Origin: Chloroflexota bacterium
GTDB taxonomy: Bacteria > Chloroflexota > Dehalococcoidia > UBA2979
Assembly (NCBI GenBank): GCA_002716405.1
Contig: PBBA01000006.1
Location: 477,479 to 541,478, forward strand
Length of the DNA: 64,000 nt
Direction of reading: 5' to 3'
The translations under genes were made by a program, and so were the position numbers. The notes beneath the pieces are model-generated. The model was not told the origin of the DNA. It searched no databases and saw nothing but the letters and a program-made list of their open reading frames with translations. Positions 16,811 through 24,158 of this stretch are shown here, one piece after another. How positions within the stretch are numbered: position 1 is the stretch's first letter; each line of letters opens with the position of its first letter.

Positions 16811-18181
16811 CTACATTAGACCTAGTTCATGGTCGCTATCAATATCTAGGATTAATTCACGTGCTTCAGCAACAGCATACATGCTCCCAGTCACAATTAT
16901 AGTTCCTGATGATTTTGTAAGCATATAGGCGTAATCGATTGCAGATTCCATGTCATCAGTTGTTCGTACTTGGTGGCCCATTTTATCTAGTACATTAAAT
17001 ATTTCGATATTAGTTATTGATCGTTTTGTACGTAAGTTAGGTAGCACTACACTACTCTGTTTGGGCAATAATCTTGGTAGTATATCGAGCCAATTTTTAT
17101 CTTGGAGAATAGCTAGAATATATACATGAGGTTGATGGAAAATTTGCTCATCGATAGATTCCCTTAATCTTTGTGCAGCAAGTTGGGTATGGGCGCCGTC
17201 TAAGATTATAGTAGGGTTTATATTTATTATTTCACCTCTACCGGGGAGGTTTATTTTTGAGAATGCTCGCAATACTGCTACTGGGTCTAAAATCTTTGTG
17301 GTTTGTCCCAAGGCTAATTCAGAGGCACGTATTGCGGTTATAGCATTTTCGACTTGATGGCGCCCAAGAGTTGGTAACGAAATATTTTTATAAGTATTAT
17401 CTGGAGTTTCTAAATCAAATTGGATTGATTTCTTATTTAGATCATTGATTACATAGTTGCATTCATTAGTTGTTTCATGGACATTCGCACTTACTTTTTT
17501 TGATGCATGATAAATTTGTTCTAATGCATCATCATACTGAGGTGATGTAACTACTTCACAATCAGAAGTAATGATTCCAGATTTTTCTTTGGCAATTTCA
17601 GATATTGTTTTTCCTAAAATTGCCGTATGTTCTAGATCTATTGGTGTAATTATAGCAACCTCTTTATTTTGTATTGCGTTTGTTGGGTCTAGTCTTCCTC
17701 CTAATCCTACCTCTAAGGTTTGCCATGCACTTTTTTCGTGCGAAGCTACGATCCAGGCCATAATTGTTATGAGTTCAAAATAAGATGCTGTAGAGGATAT
17801 TTTTGAATCTAGTACGATTTTAGCAATATCAACAAATTGCCTTTCTGATAATGGGCTACCATTAATTTGAATTCTTTCTCTAGCTGAATGAAGATCCGGT
17901 GATATTGTAAGCATAGTTTTAACATTTGGATCATCAATTATTAATGATTCTCGAATTAAGGTGTCGACCATTATGGCAGTAGATCCCTTTCCCTTTGATC
18001 CTGCAACATGGATAGTATTTCGCTCCTGCGGATTATCTATTTCTGAAAGGTATTGTCGGATAATATTGATTCTATTGGATTTAGTGGAATTTATTTGTGA
18101 TCGATTTTGTTCATTCTTAAGTAAATTTTGTATCGATAGAATATATAGTTCTTTGTCATTAAGGTCTTGTTTATATTTCAT
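16811..18181 (-). CDS. folC: dihydrofolate synthase / folylpolyglutamate synthase (Mur-ligase family)
   Basis: HVAGSKGKGST P-loop and Mur-ligase central/C-terminal layout. Confidence 0.8.
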   Translation of the reverse strand: MKYKQDLNDKELYILSIQNLLKNEQNRSQINSTKSNRINIIRQYLSEIDNPQERNTIHVAGSKGKGSTAIMVDTLIRESLIIDDPNVKTMLTISPDLHSARERIQINGSPLSERQFVDIAKIVLDSKISSTASYFELITIMAWIVASHEKSAWQTLEVGLGGRLDPTNAIQNKEVAIITPIDLEHTAILGKTISEIAKEKSGIITSDCEVVTSPQYDDALEQIYHASKKVSANVHETTNECNYVINDLNKKSIQFDLETPDNTYKNISLPTLGRHQVENAITAIRASELALGQTTKILDPVAVLRAFSKINLPGRGEIININPTIILDGAHTQLAAQRLRESIDEQIFHQPHVYILAILQDKNWLDILPRLLPKQSSVVLPNLRTKRSITNIEIFNVLDKMGHQVRTTDDMESAIDYAYMLTKSSGTIIVTGSMYAVAEARELILDIDSDHELGLM

Positions 18182-18232: not shown

Positions 18233-18949
18233 TTGCTTATGATTAGAACTTATCGGACATCGGCAGGAAGTATATCTCAAAAGACTACCGAGCTTCTCAG
18301 TCAACATTTACATCATAAATCGGTTGGTGAAGATATTAAGCTCAGTATTGAATTTGGATCAGTGGGTCGTGGCGGCGCATCACTGTTCTTTCTATTTTTG
18401 GATGTGAATGAGTATGGATTATCAGATCTTCCAGTGATTACGGCTACATACGGTTCAGGTTTTTTCTCTGATAGTAATTGGGTAGAAGTATTAAATTATA
18501 ATAGGAAAGCTGTATTTCCTTCGGAGCGTATTATTGAAATACCAGAGGTTATAGAAATTGCAATCTTTCATCAAATTGCCTCACTTGTCACTTTAGGCGG
18601 CAAATTACTAATCGAATATGATTCTCCTGACCATCGTTTAACTGCTGAAGCCTTAAGTTTGGGTGTTCCGCCTGCTGCAACCCCTTTGGGGGGAATAATG
18701 TTATCAGCAGGATGTGGTGTAAAGTTCATTAATCATGATTTTGCAGGTGGAGGTCGGTCAGGACGTCGAAAACTTATTGGATTACGTGGGAGGGGCGATC
18801 AGACTGATCGAATGTTGTCACTTAGTATGATTAAGGAATTAGAAAATTTCTTAACTTGGTCCAAGGATTTAGATTGGCTAATTCAATCAAAAACCAGACC
18901 TATTGCTATAGCAACTATTACTATGCTTAAAGAAAAATTTAGTTTATGA
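18233..18949 (+). CDS. hypothetical protein
   Basis: 238-aa ORF directly upstream of fbp on the same strand. No motif recognised. Confidence 0.5.
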   Translation: MLMIRTYRTSAGSISQKTTELLSQHLHHKSVGEDIKLSIEFGSVGRGGASLFFLFLDVNEYGLSDLPVITATYGSGFFSDSNWVEVLNYNRKAVFPSERIIEIPEVIEIAIFHQIASLVTLGGKLLIEYDSPDHRLTAEALSLGVPPAATPLGGIMLSAGCGVKFINHDFAGGGRSGRRKLIGLRGRGDQTDRMLSLSMIKELENFLTWSKDLDWLIQSKTRPIAIATITMLKEKFSL

Positions 18950-18991: not shown

Positions 18992-19957
18992 ATGCCACTA
19001 ATAATCGAGGGAATTAAATCACCAATAGAAGGAGTGGATGATGCTTCTCTAGCTCCCGTCCTAGAGGCCATAGTCGCGGCTGCTAAATTAATTTCTAATA
19101 ATGTACAAAATGGAGCACTTATTGAGCGTCTTGATTCAGAAGGTGTGCGAAATGTTCATGGTGAATTAGTTCATACATTAGATACATTAGGGACAAATAC
19201 GTTTGTTGAATTTTTTAAGGATACCCAAGTTGTTGCTGGTTTAGTATGCGAAGAATTGGAGACGGAAACGTTTTTTAATGTGGAAGATATTTCTGAATCT
19301 TACTTCTGTGTTTTGGATCCTATCGATGGTACATCGAATGCAGATATTGCAATTACAATTGGTTCTATTTTCGGTATTTTTAAGGGGACCAATGGAGATA
19401 GTACGCTAGATGCTACTCAATTTTTGCGTCCTGCAAAAGATTTTGTTGCTGCGGGGTATGTTCTATATGGTTCAAGTACTTTGTTAATATTAGCGACTCC
19501 AATGAAAGTACAAGAATTTACACTTGATATCGCCAAGATGGAATTTGTCTGTACTCGTAGTTCACTTAGTATTCCCGTTGAATGTCCTTATTATAGTGTA
19601 AATCAAGGATATGAAGATTTTTGGGAAGATAATATAAAAGATGTCGTTCATTCAATTAAAAAAGGACGCTCATTAAGGTACGTTGGATCGTTAGTCTCAG
19701 ATTTCCACCGTGATCTTATCAGAGGTGGTGTCTATTTGTATCCAGGTGATGTGAACAATCCAGAAGGCAAAATTCGTTTGCTCTATGAAGCGGCTGTAAT
19801 GAGTTACATCGCACATTATGCCGGAGGAAGTTCTACTAATGGATATACATCTATTTTTGATTTACAACCCAAGTCAATTCATCAACGAACGCCAATTTTT
19901 GTTGGTAATTCAAATGTAATTGAACAAATCGAATCAATATTAAGAGATAATACTTGA
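18992..19957 (+). CDS. fbp: fructose-1,6-bisphosphatase, class 1
   Basis: DPIDGTSNADI metal-binding motif and GKIRLLYEAAVMSYIAHYAGG. Confidence 0.85.
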   Translation: MPLIIEGIKSPIEGVDDASLAPVLEAIVAAAKLISNNVQNGALIERLDSEGVRNVHGELVHTLDTLGTNTFVEFFKDTQVVAGLVCEELETETFFNVEDISESYFCVLDPIDGTSNADIAITIGSIFGIFKGTNGDSTLDATQFLRPAKDFVAAGYVLYGSSTLLILATPMKVQEFTLDIAKMEFVCTRSSLSIPVECPYYSVNQGYEDFWEDNIKDVVHSIKKGRSLRYVGSLVSDFHRDLIRGGVYLYPGDVNNPEGKIRLLYEAAVMSYIAHYAGGSSTNGYTSIFDLQPKSIHQRTPIFVGNSNVIEQIESILRDNT

Positions 19958-19976: not shown

Positions 19977-20891
19977 ATGGAGGATGCTAATCAACTGAAG
20001 GAACTATGTGTACTAGATGGGATGCAACTCGCATCTGGACAATATTCTAGATTGTATAGAATGATGTACGAATATGGAACAGCTAATGGTACCTTGTTAC
20101 TTCTTCCGTACGATCATGGTATCGAGCATGGACCTATAGATTTTTTAGATTATCTACAGGGTGCTGATCCTGAATACCTTTTTCGTTTAGCAGTACAGGG
20201 GAAGTTTTCGGGTATTGCAACTCATTTAGGTTTAGCAAGGAGATATTTTTCTAATGTGGCAGGACAGGTGCCCCTTGTTGTGAAGCTAAATGGTAAAACA
20301 AATATCCCACCTGACGATCATGCTATTTCTACGATGACAGGAGATGTTGAATCTGCTGTTCGTTTAGGTGCTGACGCTGTAGGTTACACGCTATATGTCG
20401 GCTCTCCAGAGCAACATCGAGATTTTGAACAACTGCGTGCGGTTCGACGTGAATCAGAATTATTAGGGATTCCATTAATTGTCTGGGCTTATCCACGTGG
20501 AAAAGATATTGAATCTAAAGGAGGTAGAGATAGTTTGTATGCAGTAGATTATGCTGCACGATTAGCGTTGGAGTTAGGTGCAGATGTAATCAAGTTGAAT
20601 ACTCCCAAGAGTCATAACCCAGATGCGAATGCCCCAGCTCAATATAAGGAACTAGAAGATGAACGTTTTGAAATGACCAAACGTGTAATCACTTCTGCAC
20701 AAAAAGCGTTGGTAGTTTTTACTGGTGGAAGCTTTCATTCAGATGAAGATTTTCTTACTGATTTAGATATGGTAATGCGTGCGGGAGCTTCAGGTATAAT
20801 TGCTGGGCGTAATATGTTCCAGCGTACTGAAGAAAATGCGATAGCAATTACCAGGCGTGTACACGAACTTTTAGGAGAATATTCACAATGA
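19977..20891 (+). CDS. class I fructose-bisphosphate aldolase, archaeal/DhnA type
   Basis: LLLPYDHGIEHGP, VVKLNG and ADVIKLNTP (Schiff-base Lys context); 304 aa. Confidence 0.78.
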   Translation: MEDANQLKELCVLDGMQLASGQYSRLYRMMYEYGTANGTLLLLPYDHGIEHGPIDFLDYLQGADPEYLFRLAVQGKFSGIATHLGLARRYFSNVAGQVPLVVKLNGKTNIPPDDHAISTMTGDVESAVRLGADAVGYTLYVGSPEQHRDFEQLRAVRRESELLGIPLIVWAYPRGKDIESKGGRDSLYAVDYAARLALELGADVIKLNTPKSHNPDANAPAQYKELEDERFEMTKRVITSAQKALVVFTGGSFHSDEDFLTDLDMVMRAGASGIIAGRNMFQRTEENAIAITRRVHELLGEYSQ

Positions 20892-20964
20892 TTTTTAGTT
20901 TTTTTGTATTTTATTCGTTTGGTTCACCACAATTCGGTTAACTTTTACTTCTATTGCTGCACCA

Positions 20965-22032
20965 GTGGGTGGACTTGTAAGCCCTGGAGTATCTCACTCT
21001 GATATTGCTGAAGTTGCTCAATCTGCAGTAGCTAGAATTGTTATACACACTCCAATAATCGATCTCAAAACTTTTTTAGTAGGTGGCTCAATTTATATTC
21101 TTATTACTCATACAGCAGATGAGAATGATAAGCAGATATTATCGATTGCCAAGAATATTATTGATGAGTGTCAAAGTCTTGCAAAGAAATTGAAATTATA
21201 TGTTTACCATGAAAATGTAGGATTAAATTCTTCAGACGATGATTTAAATGGTTTTGGTTTTTCTGTAGCTGAAATAACTTTTGAGGAAAGAGTAAAAGAG
21301 TCCTTGATTTGCTTTATAGGATCTGGCATGGGTTTGGGAGGATTTAATCTTCCTTTGTTTAAAAGTTTTGCTGATCCATTCAATACACCTGGTTTGATTT
21401 TCTCCGATATGTTGCATGAGGGAACTGCTTTTGAAGTGCAAGATGTAATGGAACGTCGCAAGGCAGTCTTTACTAACCCCAATGAATCGTATGATTTGCT
21501 CGCCTATATAGGTATGACAGATAGATTTATTGTACATCGTGTAATTACTCGCGCTGATGGTAAAATTGTAGCAGTCGCATCAACAGATAGACTAAGTGAC
21601 GTGAATGGGTTAAATTCCGGGAATGATACTCCTGTTGCAATTGCCCGGTGTGAAGGCTCATTGCCTACAGTTGGTGAAATTACTGAACCTTATGCTGTCC
21701 CTGCGCTAGTTGTAGGTTCAAATAGAGGTTCTCACTTAGGACCATGTATGCCTGTTAGTATCACGGATTTATCAATTGGTAGATTTGATGGGCCACCTAA
21801 AGTTGCTGCTCTCGGATTTAATCTCGTTGATGGAAAACTAGGCTTGGAAAAAGATATTTTTGCTGATAAGTCGTATGATCGTGCTAGAGAGCAAGCTAAC
21901 TTACTAACAGATATTTTACGTAAACAAGGTCCATTCGAGCCATATCGAGTAAGCCTTGATAACTCTGAGATTCAACAATTACCTGGATTTGTCGCGCAAA
22001 CAGAATCTCGTTGGGTTTCAGTTGGAGAATAA
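20965..22032 (+). CDS. FBP aldolase/phosphatase (class V FBPase) homologue with substituted catalytic motifs; true start uncertain
   Basis: Conserved scaffold motifs FADPFNTPGL, RGSHLGPCMPVS, RFDGPP and QGPFEPYR. Similarity continues upstream of the GTG, where the frame is open from 20899. Confidence 0.65.
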   Translation: MGGLVSPGVSHSDIAEVAQSAVARIVIHTPIIDLKTFLVGGSIYILITHTADENDKQILSIAKNIIDECQSLAKKLKLYVYHENVGLNSSDDDLNGFGFSVAEITFEERVKESLICFIGSGMGLGGFNLPLFKSFADPFNTPGLIFSDMLHEGTAFEVQDVMERRKAVFTNPNESYDLLAYIGMTDRFIVHRVITRADGKIVAVASTDRLSDVNGLNSGNDTPVAIARCEGSLPTVGEITEPYAVPALVVGSNRGSHLGPCMPVSITDLSIGRFDGPPKVAALGFNLVDGKLGLEKDIFADKSYDRAREQANLLTDILRKQGPFEPYRVSLDNSEIQQLPGFVAQTESRWVSVGE

Positions 22033-22635
22033 ATGATTCAATCTCGATTAGTAGTTGCTACATCAAATCAGGGAAAATTGAATGAAATTCGCACATTACT
22101 TGATGATACTAATTGGTTAATATTGGGGTTGGCTGACTTTAATTTACAGGATACCGCTATAATCGAGACAGGTAATTCATACTTAGAGAATGCTTTGGCA
22201 AAAGCTAACCATATTGCTAAATTGACAGGAATAATGACATTAGCTGATGACTCTGGTTTAGAAGTTAATGCATTGGGAGGTAGTCCAGGAGTAGTTACTG
22301 CAAGATTTGGTGGTCCACTTCTAAATGATAATCAAAGATGTCAATATTTGTTAAAATTGCTATCAGATATTCCTAAGCAAAAACGACAAGCATGCTTTCG
22401 TGCTGTCCTTGCAATTAGTGTCCCAGGAGGACTTAGCTTTGCACGAGAAGGTATATTGAAAGGATATATTGCACAAGAAATTCGTGGCGAGAACGGATTT
22501 GGCTATGATCCTATTTTTGAAATCCAAGATGGAAGGACATTAGCTGAAATGGGGACTGAAAAACAGCAAATTAGTCATCGTTTTAAAGCAATAAAAGCAA
22601 TAAAGAAAGTATTATTGGATTTTCATCATGACTGA
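22033..22635 (+). CDS. rdgB: dITP/XTP pyrophosphatase (RdgB/HAM1)
   Basis: VVATSNQGKLNEI, DDSGLEV, FGYDPIF. Confidence 0.88.
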   Translation: MIQSRLVVATSNQGKLNEIRTLLDDTNWLILGLADFNLQDTAIIETGNSYLENALAKANHIAKLTGIMTLADDSGLEVNALGGSPGVVTARFGGPLLNDNQRCQYLLKLLSDIPKQKRQACFRAVLAISVPGGLSFAREGILKGYIAQEIRGENGFGYDPIFEIQDGRTLAEMGTEKQQISHRFKAIKAIKKVLLDFHHD

Positions 22636-23671
22636 TTCACACGATCATATGTCCGACGATAATTTTATTGATTCCTTAGGTAGGCCGTTAAGAGATTTAA
22701 GGATTTCTGTGACCGATCGATGCAATTTTCGATGTCAGTACTGTATGCCTAAAGAAATTTTCGGACCAGAATTTAAATTTTTGCGCCGGCAAGACATTAT
22801 GAGTTTCGAAGAAATTACCCGAATAGCTTCACTGGCTACCAGTTTAGGTGTTAAAAAATTTAGACTTACAGGTGGAGAGCCGTTACTTCGAGCCGATCTA
22901 CATAAACTTATCCGTCAACTTCACAGGATTCCTGATATTGAAATTGCTCTAACCACAAATGGTACTTTACTTAAAAATCATGCTCAATTATTAGCTGAAT
23001 CAGGTTTAGATAGAGTAACAGTCAGTCTAGACTCATTGGATGATCAAATCTTTCGTCAAATGAATGATGTTGATTTTCCTGTTAGGGATGTTTTAGAAGG
23101 GATTGAAGTGGCAGATAGATTTGGCTTGGGCCCAATTAAGGTTAATGCTGTTGTTCGTAAGGATGTTAATGATCATACGCTTCTGGATTTAGCGACATAT
23201 TTCCGCGGGACTCCTCATATTGTCAGATTCATCGAATTTATGGACGTTGGTAATTCTAATGGTTGGGTTATGGATGAAGTGATCCCTTCGAGTAAAGTTC
23301 TTGACCTGATCGGGAATATTTTTCCTTTAGAGCAACTTCCTTCTAATTATAGTGGTGAAGTAGCGAATAGGTTTCGATACAAGGATGGTAAAGGTGAAAT
23401 AGGATTGATCAGTTCTATTACTGCTCCTTTTTGTGAAAATTGTACTCGTGCACGCTTATCTGCAGATGGTAAGTTTTTCACTTGTCTTTTCGCTAGTGGT
23501 GGTACAGATCTTTTGCAGGAGATTCGTTCTGGTGCTACCGATGAACATTTAACTCAGATATTAAGATCTATTTGGTTAAGTAGAGGAGATCGATATTCGG
23601 AGATTAGAACTGAATATATGCGATCACTTCCTGAGGACAAAAAAATAGAGATGTCATACATAGGTGGTTAA
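22628..23671 (+). CDS. moaA: GTP 3',8-cyclase
   Basis: Radical-SAM CNFRCQYC and the C-terminal CENCTRARLSADGKFFTC cluster. Confidence 0.92.
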   Translation: MTDSHDHMSDDNFIDSLGRPLRDLRISVTDRCNFRCQYCMPKEIFGPEFKFLRRQDIMSFEEITRIASLATSLGVKKFRLTGGEPLLRADLHKLIRQLHRIPDIEIALTTNGTLLKNHAQLLAESGLDRVTVSLDSLDDQIFRQMNDVDFPVRDVLEGIEVADRFGLGPIKVNAVVRKDVNDHTLLDLATYFRGTPHIVRFIEFMDVGNSNGWVMDEVIPSSKVLDLIGNIFPLEQLPSNYSGEVANRFRYKDGKGEIGLISSITAPFCENCTRARLSADGKFFTCLFASGGTDLLQEIRSGATDEHLTQILRSIWLSRGDRYSEIRTEYMRSLPEDKKIEMSYIGG

Positions 23672-23693
23672 TTGTACTTAAGGATCAAGCTTT

Positions 23694-24158
23694 ATGTTTT
23701 CACATATTGATGAAAAAGGTAATGCCAAAATGGTAGATATATCGGACAAAGATCATACCGTGCGTATCGCTACTGCTACAGCTTCAATCACAATGCATAA
23801 AGCCACATTAGAAGAAATAGTTGATGGAAATATTCCTAAGGGAAATGTACTTAATACTGCTAAGATTGCCGGGATAATCGCAGCAAAAAAAACACATGAG
23901 TTAATTCCGTTGTGTCATCAAATATTGCTTTCAGGGGTTGATATAGAATTTCATCCAGATCAAAAAAATGCAACTCTAGTAATTAATTCTAGTGTTAGAA
24001 CAACTTATTCAACTGGTGTTGAGATGGAAGCCTTAACAGCAGTGAGTGTTGCAGCTTTGACGATATATGATATGTGTAAGGCGGTAGATAAAAATATGAA
24101 AATTACGAATATTTATTTAGTTTCTAAAACTGGAGGAAAATCAAGTAATACCCAATAA
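23694..24158 (+). CDS. moaC: cyclic pyranopterin monophosphate synthase
   Basis: MVDISDK, ELIPLCHQI, MEALTAVSVAALTIYDMCKA. Confidence 0.92.
   Translation: MFSHIDEKGNAKMVDISDKDHTVRIATATASITMHKATLEEIVDGNIPKGNVLNTAKIAGIIAAKKTHELIPLCHQILLSGVDIEFHPDQKNATLVINSSVRTTYSTGVEMEALTAVSVAALTIYDMCKAVDKNMKITNIYLVSKTGGKSSNTQ

Follow-up and report, generated by a model that had tools for sequence, protein, structure and literature searches.

An FBP aldolase/phosphatase homologue with replaced catalytic residues, conserved next to class I fructose-1,6-bisphosphatase in Dehalococcoidia and with a putative AUU start

FBP aldolase/phosphatase (FBPA/P; FBP stands for fructose 1,6-bisphosphate) is held to be the ancestral enzyme of gluconeogenesis. 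We analyzed a gene related to it that lies on a 64,000-nucleotide stretch of DNA from a Chloroflexota bacterium (Dehalococcoidia, UBA2979; GenBank assembly GCA_002716405.1, contig PBBA01000006.1, positions 477,479 to 541,478), hereafter called the window. Judged by its sequence, the window gene is a descendant of the bifunctional enzyme, and it is highly likely that the product, while expressed and folded, can no longer carry out FBPA/P chemistry. With moderate confidence, we read the evidence as a whole as describing a catalytically dead FBPA/P that was displaced in situ, was retained as a non-catalytic binding protein, and is translated from an AUU start codon. The proposed coding sequence is as follows:

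20932..22032, + strand, FBPA/P-like coding sequence of 366 codons, ATT through TAA, FBPase_3 fold with replaced catalytic residues

Results

An FBPA/P fold without the catalytic residues of the family

The frame of the gene is closed upstream by a conserved TAG (20896-20898) and terminated by TAA at 22030-22032 on the + strand, in a region with a local GC content of 0.36-0.44. The open reading frame (ORF) 20899-22032 matched the Pfam family FBPase_3 (PF01950) over its whole length, covering profile positions 1 to 360 out of 361 (E 6e-97). In a phmmer search against the Protein Data Bank (PDB), the protein aligned gaplessly with ST0318 of Sulfolobus tokodaii (3r1m; E 2.8e-75) and also matched the FBPA/P of Thermoproteus neutrophilus (3t2b; E 2.3e-73), while its identity with canonical FBPA/P amounted to 38-42% over the full length. 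The scaffold motifs that an initial annotation of this DNA, made from the letters and an ORF list, had described as kept (FADPFNTPGL, RGSHLGPCMPVS, GRFDGPP, and QGPFEPYR) were all found. The structure modelling proposed there was also carried out: an AlphaFold2 model built on 120 homologues (mean pLDDT 83.8, pTM 0.88) matched 3r1m in Foldseek (E 2e-37, TM 0.88/0.90), which places it in the FBPA/P fold. The only low-confidence stretches of the model were residues 94-108, 221-230, and 336-340, which we take to be the mobile catalytic loops of canonical FBPA/P. However, the protein scored 319 bits against the NCBIfam equivalog NF041126, far under its cut-off of 520, and two further members of its clade (P0006 and P0013) reached 371 and 316 bits.

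The residues are numbered below as in ST0318, which equals numbering from ATT 20932 plus 1, and invariance refers to 91 canonical homologues from the same homology search that is described below. Fifteen invariant catalytic or ligand positions were checked, and all but D233 proved to be replaced in the window protein. Lys232 is Asn and K10 is Ala (each Lys in 91/91 canonical sequences), Y229 is Asn, and the Tyr of the C-terminal loop is Ile (both Tyr in all canonical sequences). The remaining positions, 100% conserved in the 91 sequences just as D233 is, have changed from D12 and H19 to P and P, from D53/D54 to G/S, from Q95/D96 to E/N, from D132/K133 to S/G, from D234 to T, and from Q242 to E. 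R266 and H269 are kept. Alignment with the S. tokodaii and T. neutrophilus enzymes, which the initial annotation had suggested as a check on the motifs that it compared, indicated that these had not been mis-registered: the Asp and His of the N-terminal motif are indeed lost, and the changes from HVGDD to LVGGS, from ADKTEPGAFN to GSGMGLGGFN, and from YVGKDDP to NSGNDTP correspond to the replacements listed here. Three of the former catalytic sites are located as follows (residues counted from the ATT):

21085..21090, + strand, codons of G52-S53, replacing Asp53-Asp54
21322..21327, + strand, codons of S131-G132, replacing Asp132-Lys133
21622..21630, + strand, codons of N231-D232-T233, replacing Lys232 and Asp233-Asp234

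In the canonical enzyme, Lys232 is said to form the Schiff base and an Asp/His/Gln set to bind Mg2+, as reported by Du et al. and Fushinobu et al. in Nature in 2011. We take the invariant Asp/His/Gln positions considered here to be the ligands of the Mg2+ cluster; of this set, D12, H19, D53, D54, Q95, D132, D233, and D234 read P, P, G, S, E, S, D, and T in the window protein. The Tyr of the C-terminal loop (Tyr347 of ST0318) is essential for both activities of FBPA/P (PMC8740755). The assignment of roles to residues thus draws on family invariance, the PDB alignments, and PMC8740755. On this assignment, the protein is an enzyme homologue devoid of residues essential for the chemistry of its family, as is typical of a pseudoenzyme.

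The degenerate protein forms a clade and is under purifying selection

We compared the gene in four low-GC lineages, namely the window species together with L092, then L001, L093, and L094, then L002 and L003, and finally L004, L095, and L096. In all four, the 366-codon frame running from ATT or ATC to the stop is uninterrupted and free of insertions and deletions. The pairwise ratio of nonsynonymous to synonymous substitution rates (dN/dS) was 0.08-0.15 at dS 0.5-1.1, to be compared with 0.03-0.05 for the upstream aldolase gene and 0.08-0.10 for the downstream Ham1 gene. Since dN/dS is about 0.1 and the orthologues are intact and of constant length, the window gene is not a decaying pseudogene. 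This agrees with the initial annotation, which had argued from the long intact ORF against a dead pseudogene and had called for orthologues and dN/dS as a check; no frameshifts or stops appeared in the four lineages. Low dN/dS, intact frames, and conservation across the clade are together what is expected of a pseudoenzyme retained by purifying selection.

A wider homology search recovered proteins of about 50% identity to the window protein (47-53%) with the same kind of degeneration. This identity to the distant clade members lies between that of FolC (42-47%) and that of Ham1 (56-62%). In a neighbor-joining tree, the 23 degenerate sequences formed one clade with no canonical sequence inside, and the mean column identity within the clade was 72%. 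Two sub-clades could be recognized: sub-clade A (about 365 aa) carries GAGTATGAFN and GAGAGHEAP, and in sub-clade B (341 aa) two former catalytic loops have been deleted outright. Position 232 is occupied by His, Asn, Ile, Tyr, or Arg across the clade, and the C-terminal-loop Tyr is replaced by Gln or Leu in members other than the window protein. Canonical FBPA/P has 148 positions with a conservation of at least 97%; in the degenerate clade, 76 of these are retained, 34 are lost (all the catalytic ones among them), and 38 are mixed; the conserved changes specific to the clade are mostly hydrophobic swaps. The members come from metagenome-assembled genomes of Dehalococcoidia/Chloroflexota, and sample and bin names (Tara for samples, SI072 and casp40 for bins) suggest that these are of aquatic and for the most part marine origin.

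Within the window lineage, 26% of positions vary over the whole protein, compared with 7-21% in the former active-site segments and 70% in the former lid loop. Each former active-site segment contains 6-9 codons with synonymous-only differences; there are nine of them in the loop TDRLSD(V/I)(N/S)GLNSGNDTPVA, which is nearly invariant in this lineage. The single relaxed segment is the following:

21199..21267, + strand, former lid loop, residues 90-112, 16 of 23 positions variable, low confidence in the AlphaFold2 model at 94-108

The cleft is thus remodelled and lacks its metal-binding acidic residues, yet it is constrained, which speaks for a retained binding function or, conceivably, a new catalytic one, and against a purely structural leftover.

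The gene occupies the slot of the active enzyme, behind an inserted class I fructose-1,6-bisphosphatase

The syntenic block around the window gene consists of the following features:

16811..18181, - strand, folC-like Mur-ligase gene, divergent left border of the block
18233..18949, + strand, DUF1122 gene with a TTG start, 238 aa, in Chloroflexota the constant upstream neighbour of canonical and dead FBPA/P alike
18992..19957, + strand, class I fructose-1,6-bisphosphatase (FBPase I) gene, matching Pfam FBPase and FBPase_C and NCBIfam class 1 FBPase, DPIDGTSN and LLYE motifs kept
19977..20891, + strand, DhnA/DeoC-family class I aldolase gene (Pfam DeoC E 1e-40), between FBPase I and the degenerate gene
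22033..22635, + strand, Ham1/RdgB gene, constant downstream neighbour, ATG directly after the TAA of the FBPA/P-like gene (22032 then 22033), no spacer
22628..24158, + strand, moaA and moaC, part of the block, moaA start overlapping the Ham1 end by 8 nt

The best NCBIfam match of the aldolase was class I FBP aldolase, with 204 bits under a cut-off of 277. In all degenerate loci the genes stand in the order folC (reverse strand), DUF1122, class I FBPase, degenerate FBPA/P, in some cases a hydrolase, Ham1, moaA, and moaC, and the degenerate gene fills the X position of the arrangement FolC<-DUF1122->X->Ham1->MoaA->MoaC in 11 lineages. About 18 other Chloroflexota loci, including one in a metagenome-assembled genome of Dehalococcoides mccartyi, share the block, and X is mostly a canonical FBPA/P there, with L024 and L037 as exceptions. 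Because it sits in the same syntenic slot, the window gene is the positional orthologue of the active enzyme and not an extra paralogue. The initial annotation had offered "pseudoenzyme or repurposed paralogue"; a pseudoenzyme or repurposed protein is still the best reading, while the paralogue part has to be dropped.

The FBPase I gene lies directly 5' of the degenerate gene in all degenerate loci, with a gap of either 3-5 nt or about 45-70 nt, and it stands between DUF1122 and X in no canonical locus. Among the loci sampled, loss of the catalytic residues thus coincides perfectly with a class I FBPase having been inserted directly upstream of the gene. The DhnA-type aldolase insertion is confined to the low-GC lineage of the window. 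No terminator separates the genes upstream of the FBPA/P-like start. It is likely that FBPase I, together with the aldolase in the window lineage, displaced the old enzyme.

Several Chloroflexota loci resemble this displacement at an earlier step or in a parallel course. In Dehalococcoidia bacterium Fu_MAG_70 (L024:6001-7080), the gene in the syntenic slot carries D12A, H19Q, D53E, D132S, K133E, and K232S. Chloroflexi bacterium ZH-3nov15-188 (L037:4753-7074, CANMOP010000005.1) has tandem FBPA/P genes, of which the syntenic copy bears K232E and a Tyr-to-Arg change and the divergent copy directly upstream is catalytically complete, with 24% identity to the window protein; this tandem looks like an independent in-situ displacement. 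At a third such locus, L015, a canonical FBPA/P stands beside DeoC-like and FBPase-like genes.

Some further observations concern the family and the block. Four syntenic-slot FBPA/P proteins (P0052, P0024, P0030, and P0031) show only a change of K232 to N or S and fall outside the fully degenerate clade. In a profile search of 1.8 billion cluster representatives, catalytically incomplete FBPase_3 proteins were seemingly common among the divergent ones; the alignment was loose, and we put no weight on this result. The same search yielded P0211 (2730 aa), which is by Pfam a TIM-PGK-GAPDH-FBPase_3 fusion, that is, a gluconeogenic polyprotein, as well as P0183 and P0189 with several FBPase_3 stretches each. 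In sub-clade B loci (L009:8117-8998; L010:8065-8983; L013 and L014), one or two extra genes lie between the degenerate FBPA/P and Ham1, one encoding an alpha/beta-hydrolase and the others having no Pfam match. DUF1122 adjoins FBPA/P, canonical or dead, in 30+ Chloroflexota loci, and a custom hidden Markov model detected no such adjacency in the other phyla sampled; its product in the window gave no NCBIfam match and no solved structural relative. Searching the whole 64-kb window with Rfam returned no family at gathering score, and hence neither a tRNA nor an rRNA nor any riboswitch, a Moco riboswitch ahead of moaA included.

A conserved near-cognate codon marks the beginning of the coding sequence

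The initial annotation had stated that the gene lacks a canonical start upstream of the GTG chosen by gene callers and that its alignable N-terminus begins further upstream. Both statements hold. No ATG, GTG, or TTG is present in frame between 20899 and 20964, where the only near-cognates are ATT codons at 20908, 20932, and 20953, and none of the four lineages has a canonical start between the conserved TAG and the peptide IRLT(F/L)TSIA(A/S)PVGG. The codons upstream of the GTG evolve as coding sequence. The elements discussed here are:

20873..20878, + strand, AGGAGA, a Shine-Dalgarno (SD)-like motif in the 3' end of the aldolase gene, ending 9 nt before the ATG of the small ORF (sORF), invariant in all lineages
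20888..20941, + strand, 17-codon sORF, its ATG overlapping the aldolase TGA (ATGA), its TAA (20939-20941) in codons 3-4 of the FBPA/P-like frame
20899..20905, + strand, run of seven T (T7), U_UUU_UUU heptamer in the sORF frame, found only in the window species (including L092) and absent from L001, L002, and L004
20932..20934, + strand, ATT, inferred non-canonical start, reading ATT, ATT, ATC, and ATT in the four lineages
20965..20967, + strand, GTG of gene callers (355-aa product), first canonical start, GTT in the three other lineages

Codon 20932 aligns exactly with Met1/Val1 of distant orthologues (MRITLT..., MRITLTAV...). Over the 11 codons that begin with it, variable sites are distributed 2/0/7 among the three codon positions, compared with 6/5/7 in the preceding 44 nt and 5/7/6 in the other frame there; since the third-position pattern sets in at ATT 20932, the constrained coding sequence starts at this codon. 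The GenBank protein MBA01616.1 (366 aa, MRLTLTS...) begins at the same codon, and the GenBank models of the gene, with 366, 359, and 374 aa, all use ATT or ATC starts. No canonical start being present, a conserved near-cognate codon therefore stands where the coding signal begins, which is the sequence pattern of non-AUG initiation. Of the three ATT codons that the initial annotation had named as candidates, only 20932 is supported by the comparison. We rejected ATT 20908, the start of the 374-aa GenBank model, where relatives have AAT or GAT and even the 99.8%-identical strain L092 (MDTE01062685.1) has AAT, and likewise GTG 20965, which is GTT in relatives and follows codons that evolve as coding. 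A homopolymer sequencing error at T7 was dismissed as well, the run being present also in the independent assembly L092.

The leader before ATT 20932 is U-rich and has no SD, and no conserved RNA structure was found around the start (z-scores -0.07 to +1.37). For comparison, 36% of naive ORF starts in the window have an SD-like motif before them, vs 9% in the background. The sORF, which the initial annotation had not described, has the same ATG, length, and stop position in all lineages, and its TAA lies 5 nt past ATT 20932. Its peptide sequence appears unconstrained, because no codon-position bias is seen (5/7/6). In distant orthologues, a GTG start lies 3-5 nt after the FBPase stop, likewise without an SD, and weak coupled initiation therefore seems to be a feature of the clade. 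The arrangement suggests coupled reinitiation from the sORF, and an AUU initiation fed by it is plausible. Translation in the window lineage would accordingly begin at AUU 20932 (AUC in one relative), in an unstructured U-rich leader, with ribosomes on the 17-codon relay sORF probably feeding this initiation after terminating 5 nt beyond it; N-terminal peptides fitting such a start would be of the MRLTFTSIAAPVGG type. AUU and AUC initiate at about 1-2% of the AUG level in E. coli (bioRxiv 10.1101/063800), and expression would therefore be low as well as coupled.

Discussion

In the degenerate lineage a class I FBPase was inserted upstream of FBPA/P, and in the low-GC sub-lineage a DhnA-type aldolase as well. 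The inserted enzymes probably took over the synthesis and hydrolysis of FBP in gluconeogenesis and so released the old FBPA/P from catalytic constraint. Even so, the protein has stayed under strong purifying selection, with its remodelled cleft more conserved than the rest. The present-day protein would most likely be a non-catalytic, ligand- or partner-binding one, co-expressed with FBPase I and functionally tied to it; such a binding component is plausible.

The comparison with known systems places the window protein close to canonical FBPA/P in ancestry and far from it in chemistry. It is a full-length homologue (38-42% identity, TM about 0.9) in the genomic slot that the canonical gene fills in other Dehalococcoidia, and its clade keeps 76 of the 148 canonical-invariant positions. 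It differs by the absence of Lys232, Tyr229, the C-terminal-loop Tyr, and the Asp/His/Gln ligands except D233, as well as by its sub-cut-off equivalog score, its relaxed lid loop, and its non-AUG start. The partly degenerate Chloroflexota proteins (L024, L037, P0024, P0030, P0031, and P0052) share the slot and the loss of the Schiff-base Lys, and L037 also has a gene for the replacement enzyme directly upstream, as in the window locus; unlike the window protein, they keep most metal ligands and stand outside its monophyletic clade. Another FBPA/P homologue that left FBP chemistry for a different role is CinF (Cbu0513) of Coxiella burnetii, which has lost FBPase activity and acts as a Tyr-dependent phosphatase on IkB-alpha (PMC8740755). 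However, CinF keeps and needs Tyr362 (equivalent to ST0318 Tyr347), which is Ile in the window protein, and it is a secreted effector, whereas the window gene belongs to a housekeeping operon and has lost the metal ligands too. By its residues, the window clade is a different and more radical derivative than CinF. As to the start, the conserved AUU/AUC at the start position and the stop of an upstream ORF within a few nt recall termination-reinitiation and the AUU-initiated infC and pcnB of E. coli, although the window start is a predicted one and its relay sORF a putative one, with no known autoregulatory logic. Our literature searches found no description of a degenerate FBPA/P clade, the slash in "aldolase/phosphatase" not being searchable.

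Several points weigh against the interpretation that we prefer. The inactivity of the protein, that is, the loss of FBPA/P chemistry that we infer, is read only from the loss of residues. The clade shares polar replacements (Q242 to E/D, G112 to S, and A247 to T clade-wide, and K232 to His in 17/25), and from these conserved residues a new site for catalysis or binding could have arisen; "non-catalytic" therefore falls short of proof. What links the protein to FBPase I is adjacency and short intergenic distances. The displacement was assessed locus by locus, at the syntenic slot, and a canonical FBPA/P might still lie elsewhere in the same genomes. The sORF is short, its peptide is unconstrained, its SD lies inside the aldolase coding sequence, and four related lineages provide weak evidence for it; reinitiation at AUU or AUC is not known from this phylum.

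Of the other explanations, we consider possible, though on balance unlikely, that the protein is a neofunctionalised enzyme, and hence no pseudoenzyme, whose cleft has been reshaped to catalyze a different reaction, either metal-independent or with other ligands, with a sugar phosphate or some other compound as substrate. The above-average conservation of the former active-site segments within the lineage would fit such an enzyme, as would the clade-wide Glu/Asp at Q242, Ser at G112, and Thr at A247, the His found at K232 in 17/25, and the precedent of CinF, an FBPA/P homologue that became a protein phosphatase without FBPase activity (PMC8740755). However, key positions differ among sub-clades (GNDTP, GHEAP, and GHQNP), two loops are deleted in sub-clade B, the conserved changes specific to the clade are mostly hydrophobic swaps, and the catalytic Tyr kept by CinF is lost. 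That the protein still works as an FBP aldolase and/or phosphatase by means of alternative residues is very improbable. The kept scaffold, with R266, H269, D233, and the FADPFNT and GRFDGPP motifs, and the GenBank name fructose 1,6-bisphosphatase would agree with it, whereas the Schiff-base Lys, both Tyr, and eight invariant acidic/His/Gln ligand positions are gone, the NF041126 score is far under the equivalog cut-off, and genes for a dedicated FBPase I and an aldolase adjoin.

We give the least credence of all to a decaying pseudogene that has lost its start codon and whose frame just happens not to be disrupted yet. The missing canonical start and SD, together with the shortening of the gene to 280-355 aa by gene callers, might suggest one, but the 366-codon frame is intact in all lineages, with a dN/dS of about 0.1 while dS reaches 1.1, the first 11 codons show the third-position substitution pattern, and in distant clade members the gene begins normally with GTG or ATG. 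A programmed -1 frameshift or transcriptional slippage at T7, from ATG 20888 and leading to an extended product MIFSFFCILFVWFTT-IRLTF..., also appears improbable. In its favor, an SD precedes this ATG, the sORF frame contains in U_UUU_UUU a perfect slippery heptamer from which a -1 shift enters the FBPA/P-like frame, and the independent assembly L092 shows the T7 run too. Nevertheless, the three other lineages lack the heptamer and have no alternative slippery site, no downstream structure is evident (z-scores -0.07 to +1.37), and there is no coding-type substitution pattern before the ATT in either frame; we therefore rejected a programmed frameshift, for which a conserved heptamer with a stimulatory structure would be expected.

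Within the reading of a displaced, non-catalytic binding protein, a more specific proposal can be put forward only tentatively, since we hold it to be rather doubtful. The dead FBPA/P might be a dedicated non-catalytic subunit or a sugar-phosphate sensor that assembles with the co-transcribed class I FBPase (and, in the window lineage, the aldolase) or controls it allosterically, its dosage being set by the path from the aldolase stop/ATGA through the 17-codon sORF to reinitiation at AUU/AUC. If this were true, the repeated loss of catalysis in one slot (L024, L037, and the clade) would mean that the ancestral gluconeogenesis "pacemaker" already had a second, non-catalytic function in Chloroflexota.

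The findings bear on annotation in the first place. In GenBank and IMG, proteins of the clade go by "fructose 1,6-bisphosphatase" or "FBP aldolase/phosphatase", and their annotated lengths are inconsistent (280, 310, 318, 355, 359, 366, or 374 aa). Fold and descent tie the window protein to FBPA/P, but it falls short of the family's functional definition; it should not be classed with the FBP aldolase/phosphatases, and its GenBank name "fructose 1,6-bisphosphatase" is probably a functional misannotation. Annotation by homology, for example through a PF01950 match, would count the clade as FBPA/P, and abundant marine Dehalococcoidia may thereby be assigned a wrong gluconeogenic route. The AUU/AUC start with its relay sORF offers a testable case of non-canonical initiation outside the model bacteria. 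More generally, the gene is a direct descendant of the ancestral gluconeogenic enzyme that has stayed under purifying selection after catalytic loss, with its likely replacements inserted in situ, and would be a clean natural example of non-orthologous displacement in which the displaced gene is still in place. As far as its sequences tell, the clade most likely does something new, and this would imply a second, unrecognised role for the FBPA/P fold.

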